DNA from: a virus
Direction: 5' to 3' (one strand)
DNA length: 24,963 nt
Virus genome (UHGV): UHGV-0093507
In this document: piece after piece, positions 10,189 through 19,507 of the stretch
Numbering within the stretch: position 1 is the first letter of the stretch
Layout: every line of letters begins with the position of its first letter
The notes under the pieces: generated by a model
Seen by the model: the letters and a program-made list of their open reading frames with translations, nothing else
The model's database searches: none
Told to the model about the DNA's origin: nothing
Translations under genes and position numbers: made by a program

Positions 10189-11940
10189 ATGATTCAGGAC
10201 GCTTTTGTGCGCCAGCGTGCGCGGCAACTTTACTGGCAGGGTTATCCGCCCGCAGAAATATCACGTCTGATGGGAATAAACCCGAACACGATTTATGCGT
10301 GGAAAAAACGCGACCAGTGGGATGAAACGCCCCCCGTGCAGCGTGTCACGCAGTCCATCGATGCGCGCCTCATCCAGCTTACTGAAAAACAGAATAAAAC
10401 AGGCGGTGACTTTAAGGAAATAGACCTGCTGACCCGGCAGCTTAAAAAGCTGCATGATGGCCAGCCGGATGTGATGGCCGCAGGAAAGAAAGGCCGGGCG
10501 AAAAAACTTAAAAATCATTTCACGCCGGAACAGATTGCCGCACTGCGGGAAAAAATCATCAGCAGGCTGGAGTGGCATCAGCGGGGCTGGTTTGACTCCC
10601 TGACACTTTGCAGGGAAGCCGGGATACGTAACAGGATGATCCTGAAATCCCGACAGATTGGGGCGACCTGGTATTTTGCACAGGAAGCTCTGCTGATGGC
10701 GCTGCGTGACGATGTGGCGCAACCTTACCAGCGTAACCAGATTTTTTTGTCTGCGTCGCGTCGTCAGGCGTTCCAGTTTAAAAGCATTATTCAGAAGGCC
10801 GCGGCTGAAGTTGATGTGGAGCTGAAAGGGGGCGATAAAATCATCCTCTCCAACGGCGCAGAGCTGCATTTTCTCGGCACTTCTGCTGCGTCGGCACAGT
10901 CCTATACGGGCAATTTTTATTTTGATGAATTTTTCTGGGTCAGTCGCTTTGCTGAACTGCGCAAGGTGGCTGGCGCTATGGCAACCCTCAGCGGACTGCG
11001 GCGCACCTACTTCTCCACACCATCCACCGAAACGCACGAGGCGTACGCCTACTGGAACGGCGACCGCTGGAACGAGAAAAAGGCCTCGCATAAACGCCAG
11101 AGTTTTTCTGTGGACTGGAAAACGCTGCATAACGGGCTTATCTGCCCTGACCGGACTTGGCGGCAAATTGTCACGCTGGAAGATGTGGTTAATCACGGCT
11201 GGAAACACACCGATATCGACGAAATTCGTGATGAAAACACCGAAGACGAGTTCCTCAATCTCTATATGTGTGAGTTTGTCCGCGAAGGGGAATCGGCATT
11301 TAACCTGAATATCCTGATTGGCTGCGGTGTTGACGGATACGACGACTGGAAAGACTGGAAACCTTTTGCTCCCCGCCCGATGGGGAATCGTCCGGTATGG
11401 ATTGGGTATGACGCAAACGGCAGCAGTGGCAACGGCGACAGCGGTGCTGTGTCCGTGGTGGTTCCTCCGGCTGTTCCTGGTGGCCGTTTTCGAACGGTGG
11501 AGACGCGACGCGTTCAGGGGCTGGAGTTTGAAGAACAGGCCAGAGTCATTGAAGAGTTCACGTGTCGCTATAACGTGGAACACATCGGCATTGATGTGAC
11601 GGGCGGGAACGGGGAGGCTGTTTATCAGATAGTGAAACGGTTTTTCCCTGCTGCTATTCCGTACACCTTCACGCTGTCATCAAAACGGTCGCTGGTACTG
11701 AAAATGCTGCAAATAATGCGTGCCGGGCGGTGGGAATACGATCGCGCCGAACGCGAGCTGGTCGCGGCCTTTAACGCCGTGCGTAAGGTGAAAACACCGG
11801 GCGGCTTTATCACTTACGAAACGGACCGCGCGAGGGGGATCAGCCACGGCGACCTTGCGTGGGCAACCATGCTTGCTGTCATTAACGAACCGATTGGCGG
11901 CGAAGGAGAAAACGAGCGTTTCACGGTTATGGAGTTCTGA
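10189..11940 (+). CDS. P: Terminase large (ATPase) subunit (P2 gpP-like)
   Basis: 583-aa ORF; N-terminus MIQDAFVRQRARQLYWQGYPPAEISRLMGINPNTIYAWKKRDQWDE is characteristic of P2 gpP; RBS gggggag upstream; stop overlaps the Q start (TGATG). Confidence 0.9.
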   Translation: MIQDAFVRQRARQLYWQGYPPAEISRLMGINPNTIYAWKKRDQWDETPPVQRVTQSIDARLIQLTEKQNKTGGDFKEIDLLTRQLKKLHDGQPDVMAAGKKGRAKKLKNHFTPEQIAALREKIISRLEWHQRGWFDSLTLCREAGIRNRMILKSRQIGATWYFAQEALLMALRDDVAQPYQRNQIFLSASRRQAFQFKSIIQKAAAEVDVELKGGDKIILSNGAELHFLGTSAASAQSYTGNFYFDEFFWVSRFAELRKVAGAMATLSGLRRTYFSTPSTETHEAYAYWNGDRWNEKKASHKRQSFSVDWKTLHNGLICPDRTWRQIVTLEDVVNHGWKHTDIDEIRDENTEDEFLNLYMCEFVREGESAFNLNILIGCGVDGYDDWKDWKPFAPRPMGNRPVWIGYDANGSSGNGDSGAVSVVVPPAVPGGRFRTVETRRVQGLEFEEQARVIEEFTCRYNVEHIGIDVTGGNGEAVYQIVKRFFPAAIPYTFTLSSKRSLVLKMLQIMRAGRWEYDRAERELVAAFNAVRKVKTPGGFITYETDRARGISHGDLAWATMLAVINEPIGGEGENERFTVMEF

Positions 11941-12986
11941 TGAGCAGAAAAAATAAAAAAGTGCGCATGAGTTCACGCATTGATCTCGCTGATGCGCTCA
12001 GGAAAGAATCATCGCTCAGTGCATTCACATTTGATGGTCCTTATCGCCTGACCGGGCATGACCTGCTGGATAATATGTACTGTGCTGATAACGGGCGGTG
12101 GTATGAAACCCCGGTGGACTGGTACGGTCTGGCAAGAGCTGCCCGGCAAACGTCCTGGCATCAGTCTGCGCTTTACTTTAAGCGCAATGTATTACTCGGT
12201 TGCTACATCCCGCACCCGCTGCTTTCCCGGCAGGATTTCTCGGCGCTGGCGCTGGACTGGTTTGTGTTCGGTAACGCATTCCTTGAGCTTCGTAGCAATA
12301 TGCTCGGCGAACCGCTTAAATTACGGCACGCCCTGGCGAAATACATGCGACGCGGAAGCGATCTTGAATCATGGTGGTATGTGCAGGATGGCAAGGACGC
12401 GTTCCAGTTTCGTCCTGGCAAAGTGTGCCACCTGATGAATCCGGATATTAACCAGGAAATCTACGGCATGCCGGAATATCTTGGCGCATTACTCTCGGCC
12501 AGCCTTTCTCATTCGGCGGACATGTTCAGAAAACTGTACTACGACAACGGATCCCACGCCGGGTGCATCATCTACATCGGTGCAGCGCAGGTAAACCGCG
12601 AAAGCATGGACTCCCTGAAAGAAACGTTACAAGGTGCGCGTGGTGGTGGTGCGTTTAAAAACGTGCTCATCCACGCGCCCAACGGGGGCAAAGAGGGGGT
12701 GCAAATTTTGCCGTTCCAGCAGATCACCGCAAAGGATGAGTTCATGAATGTTAAGGCGGCATCCCGTGATGATGTGCTGGCTGCGCACCGCGTTCCGCCG
12801 CAACTGATGGGGGCAATGCCGGGCGAAAAAAGTGCGTTTGGTGATGTGGAGAAGGCCGCGCGGGTTTATGCAATTAACGAGCTGATGCCCGTTATGGAGG
12901 CCATGAAGCACATCAATGACTGGCTTGGCGAAGAGGTGATCCGTTTTAATTCTTATGCTCTTCTTGATGAAAAAACAGCCCCGTGA
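11940..12986 (+). CDS. Q: Portal vertex protein (P2 gpQ-like)
   Basis: 348-aa ORF, size and position as P2 Q; translationally coupled to P. Confidence 0.9.
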   Translation: MSRKNKKVRMSSRIDLADALRKESSLSAFTFDGPYRLTGHDLLDNMYCADNGRWYETPVDWYGLARAARQTSWHQSALYFKRNVLLGCYIPHPLLSRQDFSALALDWFVFGNAFLELRSNMLGEPLKLRHALAKYMRRGSDLESWWYVQDGKDAFQFRPGKVCHLMNPDINQEIYGMPEYLGALLSASLSHSADMFRKLYYDNGSHAGCIIYIGAAQVNRESMDSLKETLQGARGGGAFKNVLIHAPNGGKEGVQILPFQQITAKDEFMNVKAASRDDVLAAHRVPPQLMGAMPGEKSAFGDVEKAARVYAINELMPVMEAMKHINDWLGEEVIRFNSYALLDEKTAP

Positions 12987-13002
12987 TGGGGCTGTCCTTT
13001 TT
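12975..13002. terminator. Bidirectional rho-independent terminator between convergent Q and the 174-aa cargo gene
   Basis: Hairpin acagcccc-gtgat-ggggctgt (12975-12995) followed by a T-run on the plus strand and flanked by an A-run (T-run on the minus strand). The Q stop codon lies in the loop. Confidence 0.65.
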
Positions 13003-13525
13003 ACCAGAGTTGAACCATTTTCTGGGTGCCGTCAGGCTTGAGATTATCAATTTCAGAGAGAACGTAATATTGAATGGCTTCACAAACGGTGGTGTATGGT
13101 GACTTACCTTCTTTAAGTGGCACGATATTATTATTAACGCGAACCTGTATTTCATCGTTATACATTGCGATCGAAAGAGGAGTATGCACGAAGGCGACTT
13201 CGCCAGGTGTGTCGTCAACCACTGTCTCAATGCTGAAAATCAGTTTTCGCTCATCATTGCCGCCCCTTGCTTTGGGGGTGGCGGCAGGAATCTGAGATAA
13301 AGGCATTCTACGAAACCCTTCAGTTGTTTCCAGTCCGCATGAAACGTAATGCTGGCGATTACCGTCGCTATCCGTCCATGTCTGTGATGGCAGCTCCAGA
13401 GAGATTTCATAAGCATCAACAATTCCCTGGGCAATGCGTACAAGTGGGGTCAGGTCTTCATTGCGGCGAAAACTCTCCTTTACCTGATCTCGTTTTTCTC
13501 GTAACTGCTTGTAATTAATGACCAT
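13001..13525 (-). CDS. Hypothetical cargo protein, 174 aa, no family recognised
   Basis: ATG at 13525 is preceded by GGAGG at a 7-nt spacing, giving MVINYKQLREKRDQ…; the track ORF extends 13 codons further upstream. Visibly AT-richer than the phage backbone; convergent with Q. Confidence 0.5.
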   Translation of the reverse strand: MVINYKQLREKRDQVKESFRRNEDLTPLVRIAQGIVDAYEISLELPSQTWTDSDGNRQHYVSCGLETTEGFRRMPLSQIPAATPKARGGNDERKLIFSIETVVDDTPGEVAFVHTPLSIAMYNDEIQVRVNNNIVPLKEGKSPYTTVCEAIQYYVLSEIDNLKPDGTQKMVQLW

Positions 13526-14136
13526 AAAACAGCCTCCATTGATTTCTTTGCTCGTATTTTGCACTTATGAAGTGTGGTCGGCAAGGTGCCGCATCACTGA
13601 CGCGCTTCGCTTGTCTGCTGCTTCGCCGGGGCATAAAAAATTTATGCCCCGACTCTCCAGCTCCTGTATCAATCAGATAATTTCACGACGTCTTCCGACT
13701 TATCGCTATCATCGACGGCCAGACTCTTACACAATCCCGCCGCGCTGACTGCATGTTCTCGCCGCCTCAGTGCGATTTTGACGGCCTTACCTTTCACCCC
13801 ATCAAATCAGAACACCTTACGTCTTTTTCACGCTCAGCGTGAGCGATACAGCCATTCTGTTGTGTCGCTGCGACATCGTTCATGGAATGCTATTTACCCC
13901 CTGAAACGCGGGCTGTTCCCCCGTCACCTGCGCGCAGAAAAAACGCGTTTTTTTGTGCACGCACGGATCCTTGGCGGATCCAGCCGCCACGCGGGCCGGA
14001 AGGGCAAAAAGTCGTTCAAAAAAATTGTGCAAATTTGTGCACAATCTTGCATTAAAATCAACGTTCAGTGGATGTATTTAAGCGAAAAAAAGATCTTTGT
14101 ATAATTTCGTTCGGTTACGTTGGTGAGAGGTTCTGA

Positions 14137-14538
14137 GTGAAAGACATCACATATTGGAATGATAAAATTCAGAAACAAATTGATAGTTATCCTGAAGCTG
14201 TTCGAGAAAGGATAAATTTTGAGCTTGTTGCACTGCAGAGCGATTGTCCTCATTCTTTCGACAGTTTCGATTTTCCAGTGGATGGTGATGATGCCTTGGG
14301 GGTTCCACCTGCTCAAAAAAAATCAATGCGGGAAACGATTGGTCGCTACGCAATGCAATTAACCATCAAGAGTAGTGATTCTTATCGTATGATTTACGTT
14401 GCGAAATTTGCGGAGTCTGTTTACATACTTCATACATTTAAGAAAAAGACAAATGGTGTGTCAAAAAAAGAATATGAGACAGCTGCCGCAAGATACAAAC
14501 AATTAGTGGAGTATCGTCGTAAAAATGGCTTAAGATAG
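14137..14538 (+). CDS. Gp49-like / HigB-like RelE-superfamily toxin candidate
   Basis: GTG start with RBS gagagg upstream. C-terminal motif YRMIYVAKFAESVYILHTFKKKT…KKEYETAAARYKQL matches the Gp49-like (DUF891) pattern. A TATAAT hexamer at 14100-14105 and a ttgtgcaaatttgtgcaca repeat lie upstream. Confidence 0.6.
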   Translation: MKDITYWNDKIQKQIDSYPEAVRERINFELVALQSDCPHSFDSFDFPVDGDDALGVPPAQKKSMRETIGRYAMQLTIKSSDSYRMIYVAKFAESVYILHTFKKKTNGVSKKEYETAAARYKQLVEYRRKNGLR

Positions 14539-14608
14539 CTTGCAGGTATCTCAAATCTGATATAACATAATCAATGTCAGCAACATCGCTGATTAAGGCT
14601 GGAGAGTT

Positions 14609-14926
14609 ATGGAATTCGTCGTAGTCAAAAACCCTTATGCGTCATCAAGTAGCTCTGTAAATGAAGCTAGTGATAAACACATCCGGGCCCAATTAATGGT
14701 TATTATCCGAAAAATGATTCAGGAGCGCGGTCTTACCCAGCGAGAAGCTGCTGAATTGCTGGAAACAACCCAACCAAGAGTAAGCGAAATCATTAATGGT
14801 AAGTTAGATAATCATACCATTGATCGACTGTTTATCATGCTAAACATCCTGGGGTGGGATTTTAAGTTTGGGTATTCCGGTGGGGTTGTTACTGCGACGG
14901 CAGAACATTCCTGTCAGGTTGCATAA
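14609..14926 (+). CDS. XRE-family helix-turn-helix protein, HigA-like antitoxin/regulator candidate
   Basis: 105-aa ORF with HTH signature ERGLTQREAAELLETTQPRVSEIINGK; immediately downstream of the Gp49-like gene (toxin-first HigBA-type arrangement). Confidence 0.65.
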   Translation: MEFVVVKNPYASSSSSVNEASDKHIRAQLMVIIRKMIQERGLTQREAAELLETTQPRVSEIINGKLDNHTIDRLFIMLNILGWDFKFGYSGGVVTATAEHSCQVA

Positions 14927-14932
14927 ATATTA

Positions 14933-14966
14933 AGCCCCTGACGGGGCCAACCGTCAGGGGCTTTTC
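14933..14966 (+). terminator. Rho-independent terminator after the HTH gene
   Basis: Perfect 12-bp stem agcccctgacgg / ccgtcaggggct with 6-nt loop, followed by TTTT, 7 nt after the stop codon. Confidence 0.7.
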
Positions 14967-15091
14967 AACACAAAGAAATGATAGTCTGAGAAATATCATC
15001 ACCTTGATGTTTTGCATGTACAACTGTGATTCTAGTCAATCCAGGCAGATAATCAAGGTAAAAATCATTCTCAGTAAGGAGGTGATTATGG

Positions 15092-15241
15092 ATGGCTTTG
15101 AAATCAATTGTAAAAAAACCGGCTCCGAAAGGATTTCGTTGGCAGTTTTGCCGATACCGTAAGGTTCGTGGTGATTCTGGTCGAAAGCTGGATGCTCATG
15201 AGTATGGCTGGAAAGCTTGGGCGTTTCTAGTGCGAAGCTGA
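15092..15241 (+). CDS. Small basic, Trp-rich ORF (49 aa), absent from the ORF track, function unknown
   Basis: Strong RBS aaggagg (15077-15083) with 8-nt spacing to ATG 15092. Hand translation gives MALKSIVKKPAPKGFRWQFCRYRKVRGDSGRKLDAHEYGWKAWAFLVRS; a terminator hairpin follows directly. Confidence 0.35.
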   Translation: MALKSIVKKPAPKGFRWQFCRYRKVRGDSGRKLDAHEYGWKAWAFLVRS

Positions 15242-15256
15242 TATTTGATATTTAAA

Positions 15257-15281
15257 AGCATGGCGAAAGCCATGCTTTTTG
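15257..15281. terminator. Rho-independent terminator between the convergent small ORF and parR, possibly bidirectional
   Basis: Stem aagcatggc / gccatgctt with GAAA loop, followed by TTTTT on the plus strand. Confidence 0.65.
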
Positions 15282-15284
15282 TGA

Positions 15285-15599
15285 TCATTCAGGAAAAAAT
15301 TCCTGAATATTCTTTTTTATTTGACTTATATTCTGATTTTTGCAACCAACAGGCTCGCTGTTATGCCAGCCCCATATGTGATTGTTGGCAGGCATATTTT
15401 CCCCCTCTGACCATTCAGCCAGCCAGTAAGCAAAGGCAGGATCGTTTTTAATGAGTGCCAGTCCAGCCAGAAATGCCGCGCGTTGCGCGCGGCTGCGTTC
15501 GGAGGCTGGCAGGCTGTCGAGATAATTACACGCTTCCCGTTCACTCTTGACTGCAGCTGGCTTCAGATAGAAACTTATCCGTCTGGTTGGTGTCGTCAT
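15285..15599 (-). CDS. parR: ParR-like partition adaptor (type II, actin-type partition system)
   Basis: ATG at 15599 with AAGGAG RBS overlapping the parM stop. 104 aa; the N-terminal segment RISFYLKPAAVKSEREACNYLDSLPASERSRAQRAAFLAGLAL resembles plasmid R1 ParR as recalled from memory. The track ORF is longer (149 aa, alternative upstream start). Confidence 0.6.
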   Translation of the reverse strand: MTTPTRRISFYLKPAAVKSEREACNYLDSLPASERSRAQRAAFLAGLALIKNDPAFAYWLAEWSEGENMPANNHIWGWHNSEPVGCKNQNISQIKKNIQEFFPE

Positions 15600-15603
15600 T
15601 GGT

Positions 15604-16563
15604 TTACTCCTTGTCCATTGCGTACAGCCCATTAACCAGAGCAAACTGTGGCACCCCGTCCGCGATGAAAGTCGCATTAACTCCGCAGGCTTCGCGGATA
15701 GCGGGTGCCACAATCTCCGCCCCTCCACCGACAACCATCACCCGCCCGTAACCCGAAAAACCCGCCAGCGCGCGGCTCACGCGTTGTTTCAGTGTTTCTT
15801 CCTTTTCACGAATAACCGCCATCAGGCTGTTGTAATGCGCGTCATTGTGGATGTGCTGGCGCAGCCAGGCTTCATCATGGCGATGTTCGATAATGGTATT
15901 GGCGATGTGGTGACTGGTACGCATACCGTTAGTGGCCATCACCGACAGTACGGCATCGGCCATCAGGGAAACGCCTACGTGTGGATCGCAAAACACCTGG
16001 CTGATACCTGCCAGTTGTCCCTGAACCTTTGCCACATCCAGCGTGGTTCCGCCTAAATCCACAATCAGCAGGGATTCAAACGGACTCATGTCAGCCAGTG
16101 CTTTAAAGCCAGCCGGAATGGATTCAGGCATAACCCGCACGTTACGGATAGTGAATGCCTCACCGTTCTGGTACTCCACCGGGCGCATAACGTTTGCTTT
16201 TTTGCGGTTGATGTTGGCCATGTCCGGCTGTGCGTTTGTGTCGAAATATTCGCTCAGTGGCAGGGTGACAACCACATCCACTTCCTGTGGTGTGATGCCT
16301 GATTTGACCAGCGCGTGATGAATGGCAATGACATTCACATCGCTGTACTGGTATTGCGTGTCGGTCGTCTGGACAAAGCGATCACTGACCGGATCAAAAC
16401 CATAGCGCACGCCATCAAGCATGTAGTTCGCGGGCTGCGTGCCACCGAACGGCGCAGACCATTCCGACTTGAAGCTGTTCGGGCTGATGGCGTTGCGGCG
16501 TTCGCCGTTCTCAGTCCATGCCAGCTTGATGTTGGTGGAGCCGTCATCGATACAAATTTTCAT
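15604..16563 (-). CDS. parM: ParM/StbA-like actin-like segregation ATPase
   Basis: 319-aa ORF; N-terminal phosphate-1 motif MKICIDDGSTNIKLAW plus later motifs (PESIPAG, IVDLGGTTLDV, VMVVGGGAE) resemble R1 ParM as recalled from memory; RBS aagga upstream. Confidence 0.8.
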   Translation of the reverse strand: MKICIDDGSTNIKLAWTENGERRNAISPNSFKSEWSAPFGGTQPANYMLDGVRYGFDPVSDRFVQTTDTQYQYSDVNVIAIHHALVKSGITPQEVDVVVTLPLSEYFDTNAQPDMANINRKKANVMRPVEYQNGEAFTIRNVRVMPESIPAGFKALADMSPFESLLIVDLGGTTLDVAKVQGQLAGISQVFCDPHVGVSLMADAVLSVMATNGMRTSHHIANTIIEHRHDEAWLRQHIHNDAHYNSLMAVIREKEETLKQRVSRALAGFSGYGRVMVVGGGAEIVAPAIREACGVNATFIADGVPQFALVNGLYAMDKE

Positions 16564-16597: not shown

Positions 16598-16712
16598 GCG
16601 GGATTCTGAAATCCCGTTTTTGCCTGTTTTATGCGCGCTTCATATATCGCGGCGCGTTTTTTGCTCATTTACGGGATTTGTGAATCCCGTTTCTGTCTGT
16701 TTTTTGTTTCCA
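16598..16712. repeat. Two ~42-bp direct repeats, each holding a 16-bp near-palindrome (gggattctgaaatccc / gggatttgtgaatccc) and a T-rich tail; copy 2 lies inside the 3' end of gene A
   Basis: Copy 1 16598-16640 (tgcgggattctgaaatcccgtttttgcctgtttt), copy 2 16670-16712 (tacgggatttgtgaatcccgtttctgtctgtttt). They sit immediately upstream of parM on its coding strand. Confidence 0.55.
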
Positions 16713-19507
16713 CTGGTCAGGCCACCCCGCAGCAGGTCTGCTTTGCGGCGGGCGCGTTCAGTAGTTTCACTGATTCTCTGTGCGTGCTCTGCGTCGCGGA
16801 TGGCGCGCAGCATGTCAGAAAGCACGGTAACGGGTGTTTTCATGGTGTTCTGGTCCTGCTGAAGTGTGGATGCCAGGCGTGCGGCGGCTTCGGGGTCTGA
16901 TGCCCCCAGCTGTTCCAGATAGCTGGCGACCGGGTTATGGCGGATCTCCGTACTGCTTACGCCGTGGTTACGGCTCAGGCGCTGCCAGAGCTGCGTGATC
17001 CGGCTGTCCGGTCGGGTATCCGGTTTGCGTACAATTTCAAATCCCTGCGGTGCAATGATGCTGCCGTCAACGTACAGACTGCCGCCCCGTAACAGGTGCT
17101 GCATCTGCTGTTCACCGATATGCAGGCCGAGAGATTCAGCAGACTCCCGCCATTCTTTAGCGAGTAATTCGTGGTTATCAGGCAAAGGCCGCTGCTGTTT
17201 GCGGCTCTGTGTCCAGCTCTGCATTTCATCACTGCTGTTTTTTGCCTGTTTGTCACGCAGCGAACGCATCAGCGCCCGGCGTTCGTGCCGTTTCAGTGAG
17301 CGCATCCATTCGTTCACTTCAACGCCGTCAGGGAGCTGCGGCCACGGTGCTGGCCGTTCTTCCGGCTGTTCTGTCCCGTTGTTGTCCGTTTCCTGTACAC
17401 GGGGACAGTTATTGCCACGAGTCCAAGGGGCGGCAGGGCCGCCCTGAAGGTCAAAACCATTTTCGCGGGCGCTGTCTTCCACTTCCGGTTTACGTCTTAC
17501 CAGCTTCCAGTTATCCGGATGCGTGCACACGCGGGAGGATTCCCCGATGAGTGGTGACCAGATCCCGTAAATCTGTACACTCTGTTCGCCGTAATCGTTC
17601 AGCTCATCTGCGAGGTCGTAGGCGGTGCGAATCAGGTAGTCCTTGCGCGGAACAAGTACGCCGCCCTGTTTCTCAATGTAGGTGGCAAAACACCCTGCAT
17701 CAGCGGCAGCGAGTACCGCATCCATTGCGTCATCCTTCAGCCGTTGCGGACCTTCCGGGTTGCGTGCCATCTGGCTGGCAAGGCGGCGCAGTTCACGCCA
17801 CACCTGACGGGAGGGGATGCCAAAGAACTGGAACTGGCGGACCCGGTGAAGGCGCGCCCAGCCGATGGCGCGTTCCACGCTCTCGGCCATTGATTTTCCG
17901 GTTTCGTGGTCAACGCGTGGCTTGCCCGTTTTCGGGTCGATGCCATCCACGGCGCGGCTGTCCAGGTTCTTTCCGATGTAGGTGGCGATGTAGCTGGTTG
18001 GCGTGCCTTTTGAGCCGTCTACGTACTCCGCCTTAAAACGCGGAGTTATGTCATCGCCCAGCTCGTGGCGGTCTTCCTGAATGGCAATATCGCAGACGTG
18101 GGACACGATGGTTTCAATCTCGTCCGGATGTGCAAAGACCATCATATGCCAGTGCACAGTGCCGTCATGGTGAGGCTCCACCGTGCGGATGCCATACCAG
18201 CGCAGACCGTCGCGGTTCAGTTTTTTGCGGACCGCCGCAAAAAACGTGTTAACCAGGTAATCGCTGGAGTCGCGCATGGTGGCCCCGTTCCATTTGGGGT
18301 TCGGATGACCGTTCTCTGTTGTGGCGTGGTATTTTGACGGGCAGGTGACAGTCAGAAACACCGCTCTGTCGCCACGGGCTTCGGCCAGAAGTTCCAGTCC
18401 CTTCATGGTGGCCATCATTTCTGCCTTACGGTGAACCGGGTTACTTACTCCCGCGTAATACACCGTCTCGAGATCAATCGTGAACCCGTCTTCATTTTCC
18501 AGCATGAAACTTTTCAGGAAATCGCGTGTTTTCTCGCGCTGTGCGCGAAACTCGCTTAACGCGTCCTGGCTCAGATAGGGTGATGTTTTTCTGGAAACCA
18601 GACAGGCGGCGCGGAGTTGTTCTTCTCTCCACTCGCAACGTAACAGCCACAGTTTGCGTTTCCACCATTCCGCACAGGTCAGGCGAAGGATTGTGCCCGG
18701 CAGCAGCTCCGTGTCCGGTTCGTTCCTCCGGTCTTTATCTGTTGTCAGTGCGTCATAATGTGGAGGCATGGCGTGCAGGTGTAACGCCATGCGGGCCAGC
18801 ATCTGATACGCCTTCAGCGTTACATCCATGGTCAGTTCGCCATCAGTCGCGCCAAAGCCATCGCAGAGTTTTTCGAAGGTGCTGCTGAACATCGCCGCCG
18901 TCATGGTGGCCAGCGTCTGTATCTGGTGTTTGTTGAGCTGCGGCAGGTAAAGCAAATCGTCCAGGCGTTCGCGTCCGGCAAGGGAGCGATAACCCGGTGT
19001 CAGCCAGCGGCTGTCGGTGCGGTCCAGACGTTCGAATATTTTGCGCAGGGTTCCGCGTGTATAGCGTTCCGCCTGCCAGCTCTTTTTGCCTTTCTGACGA
19101 TCGGCTTCCTGCTTCTTGCGCAGGAAAGAGAGGTGGCGGCTCAGAGGTTCTCGCAGATAAACGGGAAGCGCCTTCAGTGTGGCAAAGGCACGGGCTACCG
19201 GGTCTTGTTCTGTTGCCCGGCGCTTACTGATGATGCTCTGTGCCAGCTTTTCACGCTGTCCGGCTTCCTCAAGGGATGCCATGAGTTTTTTACCCATGGC
19301 GGATTGTGCGAAAAAGGCTTCTTCCTTCGCTTCCTGTTCTTCCTGTGCCCTTTTGTCCGCCTCAAGGTAGTAACGGATGGCGCGTTGCAGGTCGGTTTCA
19401 GTTTCCTGCCTGCGCTCCGTAAATCTGGCCGGATCAATAGCTGGTCGTGGTTCATTCCAGCTCCATGCAAACTCACTCATGGCTGGTATCCCGTCACGCG
19501 CTGCCAC
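16640..19507 (-). CDS. A: Replication initiation endonuclease (P2 gpA-like rolling-circle initiator)
   Basis: 955-aa ORF with HUH-type motif (…DGTVHWHMMVFAHPDE…); last large gene of the early operon. Confidence 0.8.
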   Translation of the reverse strand: MAARDGIPAMSEFAWSWNEPRPAIDPARFTERRQETETDLQRAIRYYLEADKRAQEEQEAKEEAFFAQSAMGKKLMASLEEAGQREKLAQSIISKRRATEQDPVARAFATLKALPVYLREPLSRHLSFLRKKQEADRQKGKKSWQAERYTRGTLRKIFERLDRTDSRWLTPGYRSLAGRERLDDLLYLPQLNKHQIQTLATMTAAMFSSTFEKLCDGFGATDGELTMDVTLKAYQMLARMALHLHAMPPHYDALTTDKDRRNEPDTELLPGTILRLTCAEWWKRKLWLLRCEWREEQLRAACLVSRKTSPYLSQDALSEFRAQREKTRDFLKSFMLENEDGFTIDLETVYYAGVSNPVHRKAEMMATMKGLELLAEARGDRAVFLTVTCPSKYHATTENGHPNPKWNGATMRDSSDYLVNTFFAAVRKKLNRDGLRWYGIRTVEPHHDGTVHWHMMVFAHPDEIETIVSHVCDIAIQEDRHELGDDITPRFKAEYVDGSKGTPTSYIATYIGKNLDSRAVDGIDPKTGKPRVDHETGKSMAESVERAIGWARLHRVRQFQFFGIPSRQVWRELRRLASQMARNPEGPQRLKDDAMDAVLAAADAGCFATYIEKQGGVLVPRKDYLIRTAYDLADELNDYGEQSVQIYGIWSPLIGESSRVCTHPDNWKLVRRKPEVEDSARENGFDLQGGPAAPWTRGNNCPRVQETDNNGTEQPEERPAPWPQLPDGVEVNEWMRSLKRHERRALMRSLRDKQAKNSSDEMQSWTQSRKQQRPLPDNHELLAKEWRESAESLGLHIGEQQMQHLLRGGSLYVDGSIIAPQGFEIVRKPDTRPDSRITQLWQRLSRNHGVSSTEIRHNPVASYLEQLGASDPEAAARLASTLQQDQNTMKTPVTVLSDMLRAIRDAEHAQRISETTERARRKADLLRGGLTSGNKKQTETGFTNPVNEQKTRRDI

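Follow-up and report, generated by a model that had tools for sequence, protein, structure and literature searches.

A candidate HigBA-type toxin-antitoxin pair and an adjoining small-gene unit with a structured leader in the cos-proximal hotspot of a P2-like Escherichia coli prophage

The virus genome UHGV-0093507 was analyzed as a window of 24,963 nucleotides, this being the whole stretch of DNA under study, and is a P2-like (P88/Xuanwuvirus-type) Escherichia coli prophage whose orientation is reversed relative to the P2 map. It carries a pair of plus-strand genes, the first of which (14137-14538) starts with GTG and codes for a 133-amino-acid (aa) toxin candidate, a Gp49-family (HigB2/Tad-like) protein of the RelE fold, and the second of which (14609-14926) codes for a 105-aa antitoxin candidate of the HigA type, with an HTH_37/XRE helix-turn-helix (HTH) domain. 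An earlier reading made from the DNA alone (the sequence-only reading) had proposed a toxin-first pair of open reading frames (ORFs) at these positions; both are present, and two complete E. coli genomes have the same two coding sequences called by the Prokaryotic Genome Annotation Pipeline (PGAP), the first named "type II toxin-antitoxin system RelE/ParE family toxin" (WP_000652085.1) and the second "helix-turn-helix domain-containing protein" (WP_000397568.1). The pair is mobile cargo of the P2-like prophage. It is real but largely ordinary, in that its family is known and already in public (RefSeq) annotation; what is new about it is that it is an uncharacterized member with an acidic insert, altered active-site positions, and a candidate operator in the spacer between the genes.

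The toxin candidate is preceded by a Shine-Dalgarno-like sequence, GGTGAGAGG (14122-14130). It matches the Pfam Gp49 family (PF05973) with an E value of 3.2e-13 and 50 bits, above the cutoff of 23.9, in the profile comparison that had been suggested as a check, and the match covers residues 58-121 only. It also matches phrog_2523 (E=8.6e-14), and an NCBIfam search returned no toxin match. An AlphaFold2 model (predicted local distance difference test [pLDDT] score of 80.8, falling below 50 only at residues 46-51) has an antiparallel sheet of the RelE type with N-terminal helices, that is, a RelE/BECR fold with the long C-terminal helix typical of Gp49 proteins, and it is closest in fold to the Gp49-type toxins Mycobacterium tuberculosis HigB1, Streptococcus pneumoniae HigB, and Vibrio cholerae HigB2. 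Alignment of the toxin family with M. tuberculosis HigB1 by hhalign (probability, 89.5%; residues 12-122) yields a residue-by-residue map; each of the twelve residues that PMC9098466 names is found at the stated number in the HigB1 sequence used. Six HigB1 residues have retained equivalents in this map: K58 (K62 here), R77 (R84), R82 (K90), F93 (F101), K95 (K103), and K113 (K121). A word-indexed search recovered 22 relatives from Enterobacter, Salmonella, Photorhabdus, and metagenomes, and an exhaustive profile search gave 1,649 Gp49-family matches, of which about 8 clusters (at 50% identity) align over the full length. Among 19 homologues, which are 48 to 80% identical to the window protein, 35 alignment columns are invariant.

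The sequence-only reading had remarked that the middle of this protein does not look canonical and guessed at a divergent variant, and subfamily alignments, together with those of canonical Gp49 proteins, bear this out. Residues 37-58 (14245-14310, plus strand) form a subfamily-specific insert, CPHSFDSFDFPVDGDDALGVPP. In the 19 subfamily members, a conserved N-terminal part precedes the insert, in which the conserved motif CPHSFDxFDF leads into a D/E-rich loop that varies in length and is shortest in E. coli, and the canonical core comes next; canonical Gp49 proteins have nothing where the insert lies. The insert is left unaligned against HigB1 by hhalign, includes the residues of lowest model confidence, and lies just ahead of K62, which corresponds to the mRNA-contacting K58 in HigB1. 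Divergence extends to the active site, where 4 of the 9 proposed catalytic-pocket positions of HigB1 are substituted, as seen in a comparison of its catalytic and mRNA-binding residues (K58, E66, R68, N73, R77, F93, K95, Q98, and K99). The subfamily has invariant basic residues of its own at K78 (on the same strand as T76, two positions past it), K102, and K104, which might compensate for the replaced pocket residues.

The antitoxin candidate has a Shine-Dalgarno sequence at 14597-14606 and matches the Pfam HTH_37 family (PF13744) with an E value of 7.7e-19. It is organized as an N-terminal segment (residues 1-16), a long helix (residues 17-40), the HTH domain, a beta-hairpin (residues 83-100), and a nearly invariant C-terminal alanine. 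The N-terminal segment, MEFVVVKNPYASSS, is without secondary structure and has lower pLDDT in the model yet is strongly conserved (F3, K7, N8, P9, Y10, S12, and S13). At the other end of the protein, a low-confidence tail leads, almost without exception in the family, to a final Ala-Ala or Val-Ala (the last codon is at 14924-14926 here), and it could be speculated that this alanine tail is a protease-recognition tag that makes the antitoxin labile. Homologues of the antitoxin lie on contigs whose sizes match those of the contigs with toxin homologues.

The two genes travel together. Their order and a spacing of 60 to 190 nucleotides (nt) are kept in more than 10 different genomic contexts, the toxin gene is first in every homologous locus examined, and conservation of the pair is far beyond chance. 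In E. coli, all eight places listed (representing 25 contigs) are the P2-like cos hotspot beside ParMR, and in another P2-like phage the pair lies between cos and the portal gene. Elsewhere it is found in Enterobacter lambdoid prophages, flanked by replication genes and the nin/Q region, at a prophage end beside int in Serratia, in prophage regions of Pantoea (one of them beside an AbiTii gene), and beside an Eco57I-like gene in Photorhabdus. Profile, fold, and synteny thus agree with the earlier assignment of a Gp49/HigB-like toxin with an XRE-HTH partner. On what is apparently a small plasmid of the Rep3 type (metagenome contigs L029 and L030; 7.2 to 7.4 kb), a homologous Gp49/HTH_37 pair neighbors a ParA gene and has an unusually long spacer of 190 nt, with no recognizable palindrome.

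The spacer between the genes, 70 nt in the window, has a DNA sequence conserved among different genera and contains a feature that the sequence-only reading had missed. A putative antitoxin promoter (TTGCAG-17 nt-TAACAT, 14540-14568, plus strand) has its spacer filled by an 18-bp imperfect palindrome, TATCTCAAATCTGATATA (14547-14564), which is unique in the window, where 0.02 matches are expected by chance. The palindrome is present in 12 of 13 loci, one copy per module, always between toxin and antitoxin genes and never upstream of the toxin gene; it is perfect in Photorhabdus (TATATCAAATTTGATATA), and a related form occurs in a metagenome-assembled genome of the Alteromonadaceae. The -35-like hexamer of the internal promoter is TTGCAA, TTGCAT, or TTGACA in other loci. 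This palindrome is likely the operator of the antitoxin, and its position suggests that the antitoxin gene has a separate, autoregulated promoter, which would be one route by which a toxin-first module could hold antitoxin in excess. A small hairpin (TCAGC-AACATC-GCTGA, 14577-14592, plus strand) lies directly 5' of the antitoxin Shine-Dalgarno sequence, and homologous loci have a hairpin of different sequence at the same site.

Upstream of the toxin gene, the TATAAT at 14100-14105 that had been put forward as part of a promoter is present, within a putative -10 element, TGTATAAT (14098-14105, plus strand), that has a weak -35. A consensus promoter scan called none at 14100, the -35 being poor; in homologous cassettes of other genera, a -10-like TGTATAAT, TGTATGAT, or TGTATACT stands at a similar distance from the toxin start. 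The second part of that proposal, TTGTGCA repeats as promoter or operator of the pair, was rejected: the repeats, at 14025-14044, lie within the conserved phage backbone and outside the cassette, and they form a conserved flank of cos that is also found in more than 1,100 prophages without the pair and at the end of P88_4B11. The linear genome record of P88_4B11 has ends that map to positions 14006 and 14007 of the window, and its right end has three TTGTGCA repeats, 11 bp apart, despite different cargo. The repeats are therefore best read, from these sequence comparisons, as part of the cos flank. The position of cos (∼14006) is taken from the ends of that record, and no match to the 186-type cos sequence was found in the window at up to three mismatches. 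Just right of the presumed cos cut (14007-14063), the repeat occurs in the window as two good copies and a degenerate one at the 11-bp spacing, and the array is kept in P2-like prophages regardless of cargo; it may be a binding array for terminase or a host factor.

The terminator assigned to the pair is a real hairpin, although its affiliation is different from that proposed. It lies at 14932-14963, at the boundary between the pair and a small-ORF unit; its stem, in which covariation is seen, is 13 bp long, and each strand carries short runs of T. Stem and loop (GGCGCCAACC) are conserved together with a downstream gene for a 49-aa protein, also where unrelated genes (XRE plus M78-peptidase pairs) precede it, and the hairpin is therefore not simply the terminator of the pair.

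Together, the pair and the small-ORF unit make up a rare low-GC cargo cassette at approximately 14064-15404. Homology to prophages without the pair stops at 14042-14063 on the left and restarts at about 15404 on the right, inside parR, so that the C-terminal coding part of ParR (15285-15404) falls within the divergent stretch. GC content is 37 to 43% across 14000-15350 and 52 to 58% in the backbone. The complete cassette is present in 2 of 5,426 complete E. coli genomes, and the backbone flanking it is common to more than 1,100 E. coli prophages without the pair. At the DNA level it has no match among GenBank phages or the plasmids of PLSDB, and a protein-level search of GenBank phages gave no close relative.

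The placement of the cassette in a hotspot, also proposed from sequence, agrees with published surveys: the cos-proximal gpQ-gpA region, a variable segment bounded by the portal gene with cos and, at its far end, by the replication gene gpA, is a hotspot for variable and often defensive cargo in P2-like phages (Rousset 2022, PMC9122126; Vassallo 2022, PMC9519451). Capsid and terminase genes lie on both sides of 10 kb, with the terminase large subunit gene at 10189-11940 and the portal gene (gpQ) at 11940-12986. On the other side of the cassette are minus-strand genes for ParR/StbB (15285-15599), ParM/StbA (15604-16563), and a GPA-type replication endonuclease (gpA, 16640-19507), and the integrase gene is near the right end of the window. 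The ParMR plasmid-partition pair (15285-16563, minus strand) is thus within an integrated P2-like prophage and directly adjoins the cassette; a plasmid partition system is found in the same hotspot in about one-quarter of P2-like phages (Rousset 2022, PMC9122126). A parC centromere was not located, the gap between parM and the gpA-like gene being just 76 nt, and the last 40 codons of parR (15285-15404) differ from those of other prophages' parR genes. The portal side of cos is variable too, in that a minus-strand gene between the portal gene and cos (13001-13564), coding for a 187-aa hypothetical protein of phrog_5091 (E=1.9e-65; function not known), is found in some related prophages only.

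The third gene of the cassette (15092-15241, plus strand) codes for a basic protein of 49 aa that belongs to phrog_33859 (E=4.8e-24) and matches nothing in Pfam or PADLOC. It has a strong Shine-Dalgarno sequence, AAGGAGGTGAT (15076-15086), a terminator of its own (15254-15279), and a structured leader (14978-15086, plus strand), defined with RNAalifold and pair counts. Helix 1 of the leader pairs 14978-14983 with 14994-14999, and a pseudoknot is formed by pairing of its loop (14986-14991) to 15069-15074, just upstream of the Shine-Dalgarno sequence; a long-range helix 3 pairs 15000-15008 with 15052-15059. In an alignment of 7 sequences, 91% of cells are paired and 13 pairs have compensatory changes, values reached by none of 500 shuffles. 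With 20 sequences, helix 1 is 92% paired (6 of 7 pairs covarying) and helix 2 is 86% paired (5 of 7), and slid controls are far lower. A search of Rfam over 13500-15700 gave nothing at or near the gathering score. The protein is 77 to 86% identical across loci where the toxin is 61 to 68% identical, with changes that are largely synonymous and in third positions. An alternative 24-aa frame at 15088 was rejected on account of its nonconserved length, as was an antisense RNA against the leader (a type I toxin-antitoxin arrangement), for which a minus-strand promoter (TTTACA-18-CATAAT) is kept only in the window and one other locus (L031) and not in five others.

This small gene is found downstream of the pair in no fewer than five separate settings, which belong to E. 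coli, Serratia, Pantoea, and two metagenome contigs. The pair lacks it in Photorhabdus and Enterobacter lambdoid prophages and on the Rep3 plasmid. Among 56 IMG/VR loci with the 49-aa gene, the Gp49/HTH_37 pair precedes it in three; in 52 it comes after one or both members of a pair made up of an XRE gene and an M78-peptidase gene (49 with both, two with only the peptidase gene, and one with only the XRE gene), and this pair matches the PADLOC capH and capP models with E values of about 1e-10. The assignment of the boundary hairpin to the 49-aa gene is new, and this gene and its covarying pseudoknotted leader are the most original material in the cassette.

We consider it probable, from sequence comparison, that the pair is a functional type II toxin-antitoxin (TA) system in which a Gp49 toxin (HigB2/Tad-like) with ribosome-dependent mRNase activity is matched with an HTH_37 antitoxin (HigA2/Ata-like). 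The comparisons show to which family the proteins belong, their fold, the order of the genes, that both the pair and its palindrome are conserved, and that the cassette is hotspot cargo, and further support comes from the six retained HigB1-equivalent residues and from synteny in P2-like, lambdoid, plasmid, and chromosomal-island contexts. By homology, the 133-aa protein would enter the ribosomal A site, cut translating mRNA, and arrest growth, and the 105-aa partner would neutralize it by way of the conserved segment at its N terminus. This partner would also act as an HTH dimer that binds the palindrome overlapping the internal promoter-like element, such that the antitoxin could be made independently of the toxin and could repress its own synthesis; the TATAAT promoter at 14100 would serve the toxin gene and, with read-through, the two genes together. 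Should antitoxin supply fail, either through loss of the element or through an infecting phage that shuts off host transcription, free toxin would be expected to stop the cell, and the prophage could benefit by addiction (stabilization), by abortive infection, or by both. Either phenotype is plausible. The addiction role is as consistent with the data as phage defense is: the pair adjoins ParMR here, a homologous pair sits on a Rep3/ParA plasmid elsewhere, and the family namesake, N15 gp49, belongs to a stabilizing TA module. For the plasmid-prophage N15 and the homologous system of SXT, this stabilizing role is what the title of Dziewit 2007 (as listed in PMC5906591) states, and E. coli HigBAC is described as defending against lambda by aborting infection.

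Toxicity is likely but, judged from the protein sequence, not assured, and several points weigh against an active toxin. The pocket replacements are found throughout the subfamily, with Q74 at the position of E66, T76 at R68, N106 (E in relatives) at Q98, and G107 at K99, which together make four of the nine proposed catalytic-pocket residues of HigB1; outside the pocket, N73 of HigB1 aligns with the variable S80 and R117 with E125. HigB1 toxicity is abolished by R68A and by K99A, and M. tuberculosis HigB2 and HigB3, which are without several such residues, are nontoxic (PMC9098466), so that activity of the present toxin is not to be assumed. The acidic loop adjoins the segment predicted to contact rRNA and mRNA. 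The promoters are weak by consensus, and no second copy of the palindrome occurs upstream of the toxin gene (with up to four substitutions) or elsewhere in the window; with no copy at the upstream promoter, there is no evident sign that the toxin promoter is autoregulated in the classical way. PADLOC-DB 2.0 has no convincing defense model for the pair, the toxin matching only NsnC (E=0.0026, at the C terminus) and the HTH protein matching the candidate model PDC-M64C (E=5.4e-5) along with generic HTH models. To our knowledge, there is no experiment for the Gp49 subfamily to which the toxin belongs.

Some of these same points would fit a degenerate, TA-derived module, in which a Gp49-like protein without RNase activity persists as half of a regulator pair or as a harmless selfish remnant: the toxicity-essential R68 and K99 are T76 and G107 subfamily-wide, E66 is Q74, the toxin gene starts with GTG in E. 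coli, and the acidic insert is at the predicted ribosome-binding face. We regard this as unlikely, however, since purifying selection is strong throughout the toxin, including K62, K78, R84, K90, and K102-K104, and the N-terminal segment of the antitoxin is strictly conserved, as expected if it neutralizes something. The pair also stays together in every context, and active sites differ among RelE-superfamily members in any case, as between the RelE-like V. cholerae HigB2 (VcHigB2) and PvHigB. Chance ORFs or misannotation in a noncoding hotspot spacer would be compatible with the cassette's low GC content and its rarity in E. coli and with nothing further; the significant Pfam matches, confident fold models, and homologues with synteny across several genera refute this explanation, whose probability we take to be negligible.

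The 49-aa gene raises a different alternative, namely, a three-part unit in which the Gp49-like and HTH proteins act with the 49-aa protein as an effector or sensor-adaptor under control of the XRE-type regulator. Its recurrence after the pair in at least five contexts is in keeping with this, as is its position after one or both genes of a CapH/CapP-matching pair in 52 of 56 viral contigs (both in 49), and PD-lambda-2, in which a HigB-like protein, an Xre-peptidase, and a third gene required for defense form one system (Vassallo 2022), would be a precedent by analogy. Against it stand the three settings in which the pair lacks the 49-aa ORF (Enterobacter lambdoid prophages, Photorhabdus, and the Rep3 plasmid), the hairpin between the units, the separate leader and terminator of the 49-aa ORF, and its lack of a match to any PADLOC or Pfam model; the linkage may be mere proximity (∼165 nt). 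A three-part unit is accordingly quite unlikely in our estimation. A more specific version, to which we give a similarly small chance, is that a HigBA-like pair replaced the CapH/CapP-like pair that normally stands in front of the 49-aa gene, a widespread prophage gene, that the pseudoknotted leader, not described before, gates translation of that gene, and that the 49-aa protein would be the effector (in defense or superinfection exclusion) with the Gp49-like protein as sensor or regulator and not a classical toxin.

If the pair is toxic and neutralized as a functional TA system would be, it adds one more HigBA-type module to the cargo of the P2-like cos hotspot and offers a natural test, with a TA pair beside ParMR, of prophage maintenance versus abortive infection. 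The acidic loop and the replaced catalytic residues could also reveal the range of active sites that the RelE fold can accommodate. The 49-aa gene may be an uncharacterized output gene of a CapH/CapP-like, DNA damage-responsive switch, and with its pseudoknot leader it is possibly a more useful lead than the TA pair.

Among known systems, the closest class is that of Gp49 (PF05973) HigB toxins with XRE antitoxins, including M. tuberculosis HigB1 of the toxin-antitoxin-chaperone (TAC) system HigBA-TAC, S. pneumoniae HigBA, Acinetobacter baumannii HigBA, and Tad-Ata/N15 gp49. Unlike canonical members, the subfamily of the present toxin has a 20- to 40-residue insert with an acidic loop between helix 2 and the first core strand, and it has Q, T, N/E, and G where HigB1 has E66, R68, Q98, and K99. 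The locus also differs from TAC systems in that it is without a SecB-like chaperone gene, the third gene coding instead for the 49-aa basic protein, and in that the antitoxin has a short tail after the beta-hairpin rather than a ChAD extension. The antitoxin has the size and layout of V. cholerae HigA2 (VcHigA2), its N terminus, conserved, unstructured in the model, and predicted to neutralize the toxin, standing ahead of the HTH domain. Sequence similarity to VcHigB2 and VcHigA2 is too low for phmmer, however, and the present HTH resembles HTH_37, with 2o38 and 2a6c as its nearest matches, and has an additional C-terminal beta-hairpin. The candidate operator is between the genes, whereas that of VcHigBA2 is upstream of the operon. 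RelE-superfamily active sites vary among members, VcHigB2 being RelE-like and PvHigB being different.

PD-lambda-2 (Vassallo 2022) has a similar arrangement: its first gene is HigB-like, its second is of the Xre-HTH type, and a small gene comes third. It originates from prophages or mobile elements and behaves in a TA-like way. The present HTH protein is without the peptidase domain, however, and it is the Xre-peptidase that is the toxic part of PD-lambda-2, the PADLOC models of which are matched by none of the three cassette proteins. The broader comparison is with the cargo of the P2-like cos hotspot, such as old, tin, retrons, and the phage-defense (PD) systems (Rousset 2022; Vassallo 2022). 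The pair is not among the systems described or tested in those studies, and the supplementary tables of Rousset 2022 have no entry for either protein or for Gp49, RelE, or HigB; no defense phenotype is known for the present pair. The cassette occupies the identical locus, and like that cargo it is short, low in GC, rare, and swappable, sharing the hotspot here with a ParMR module.

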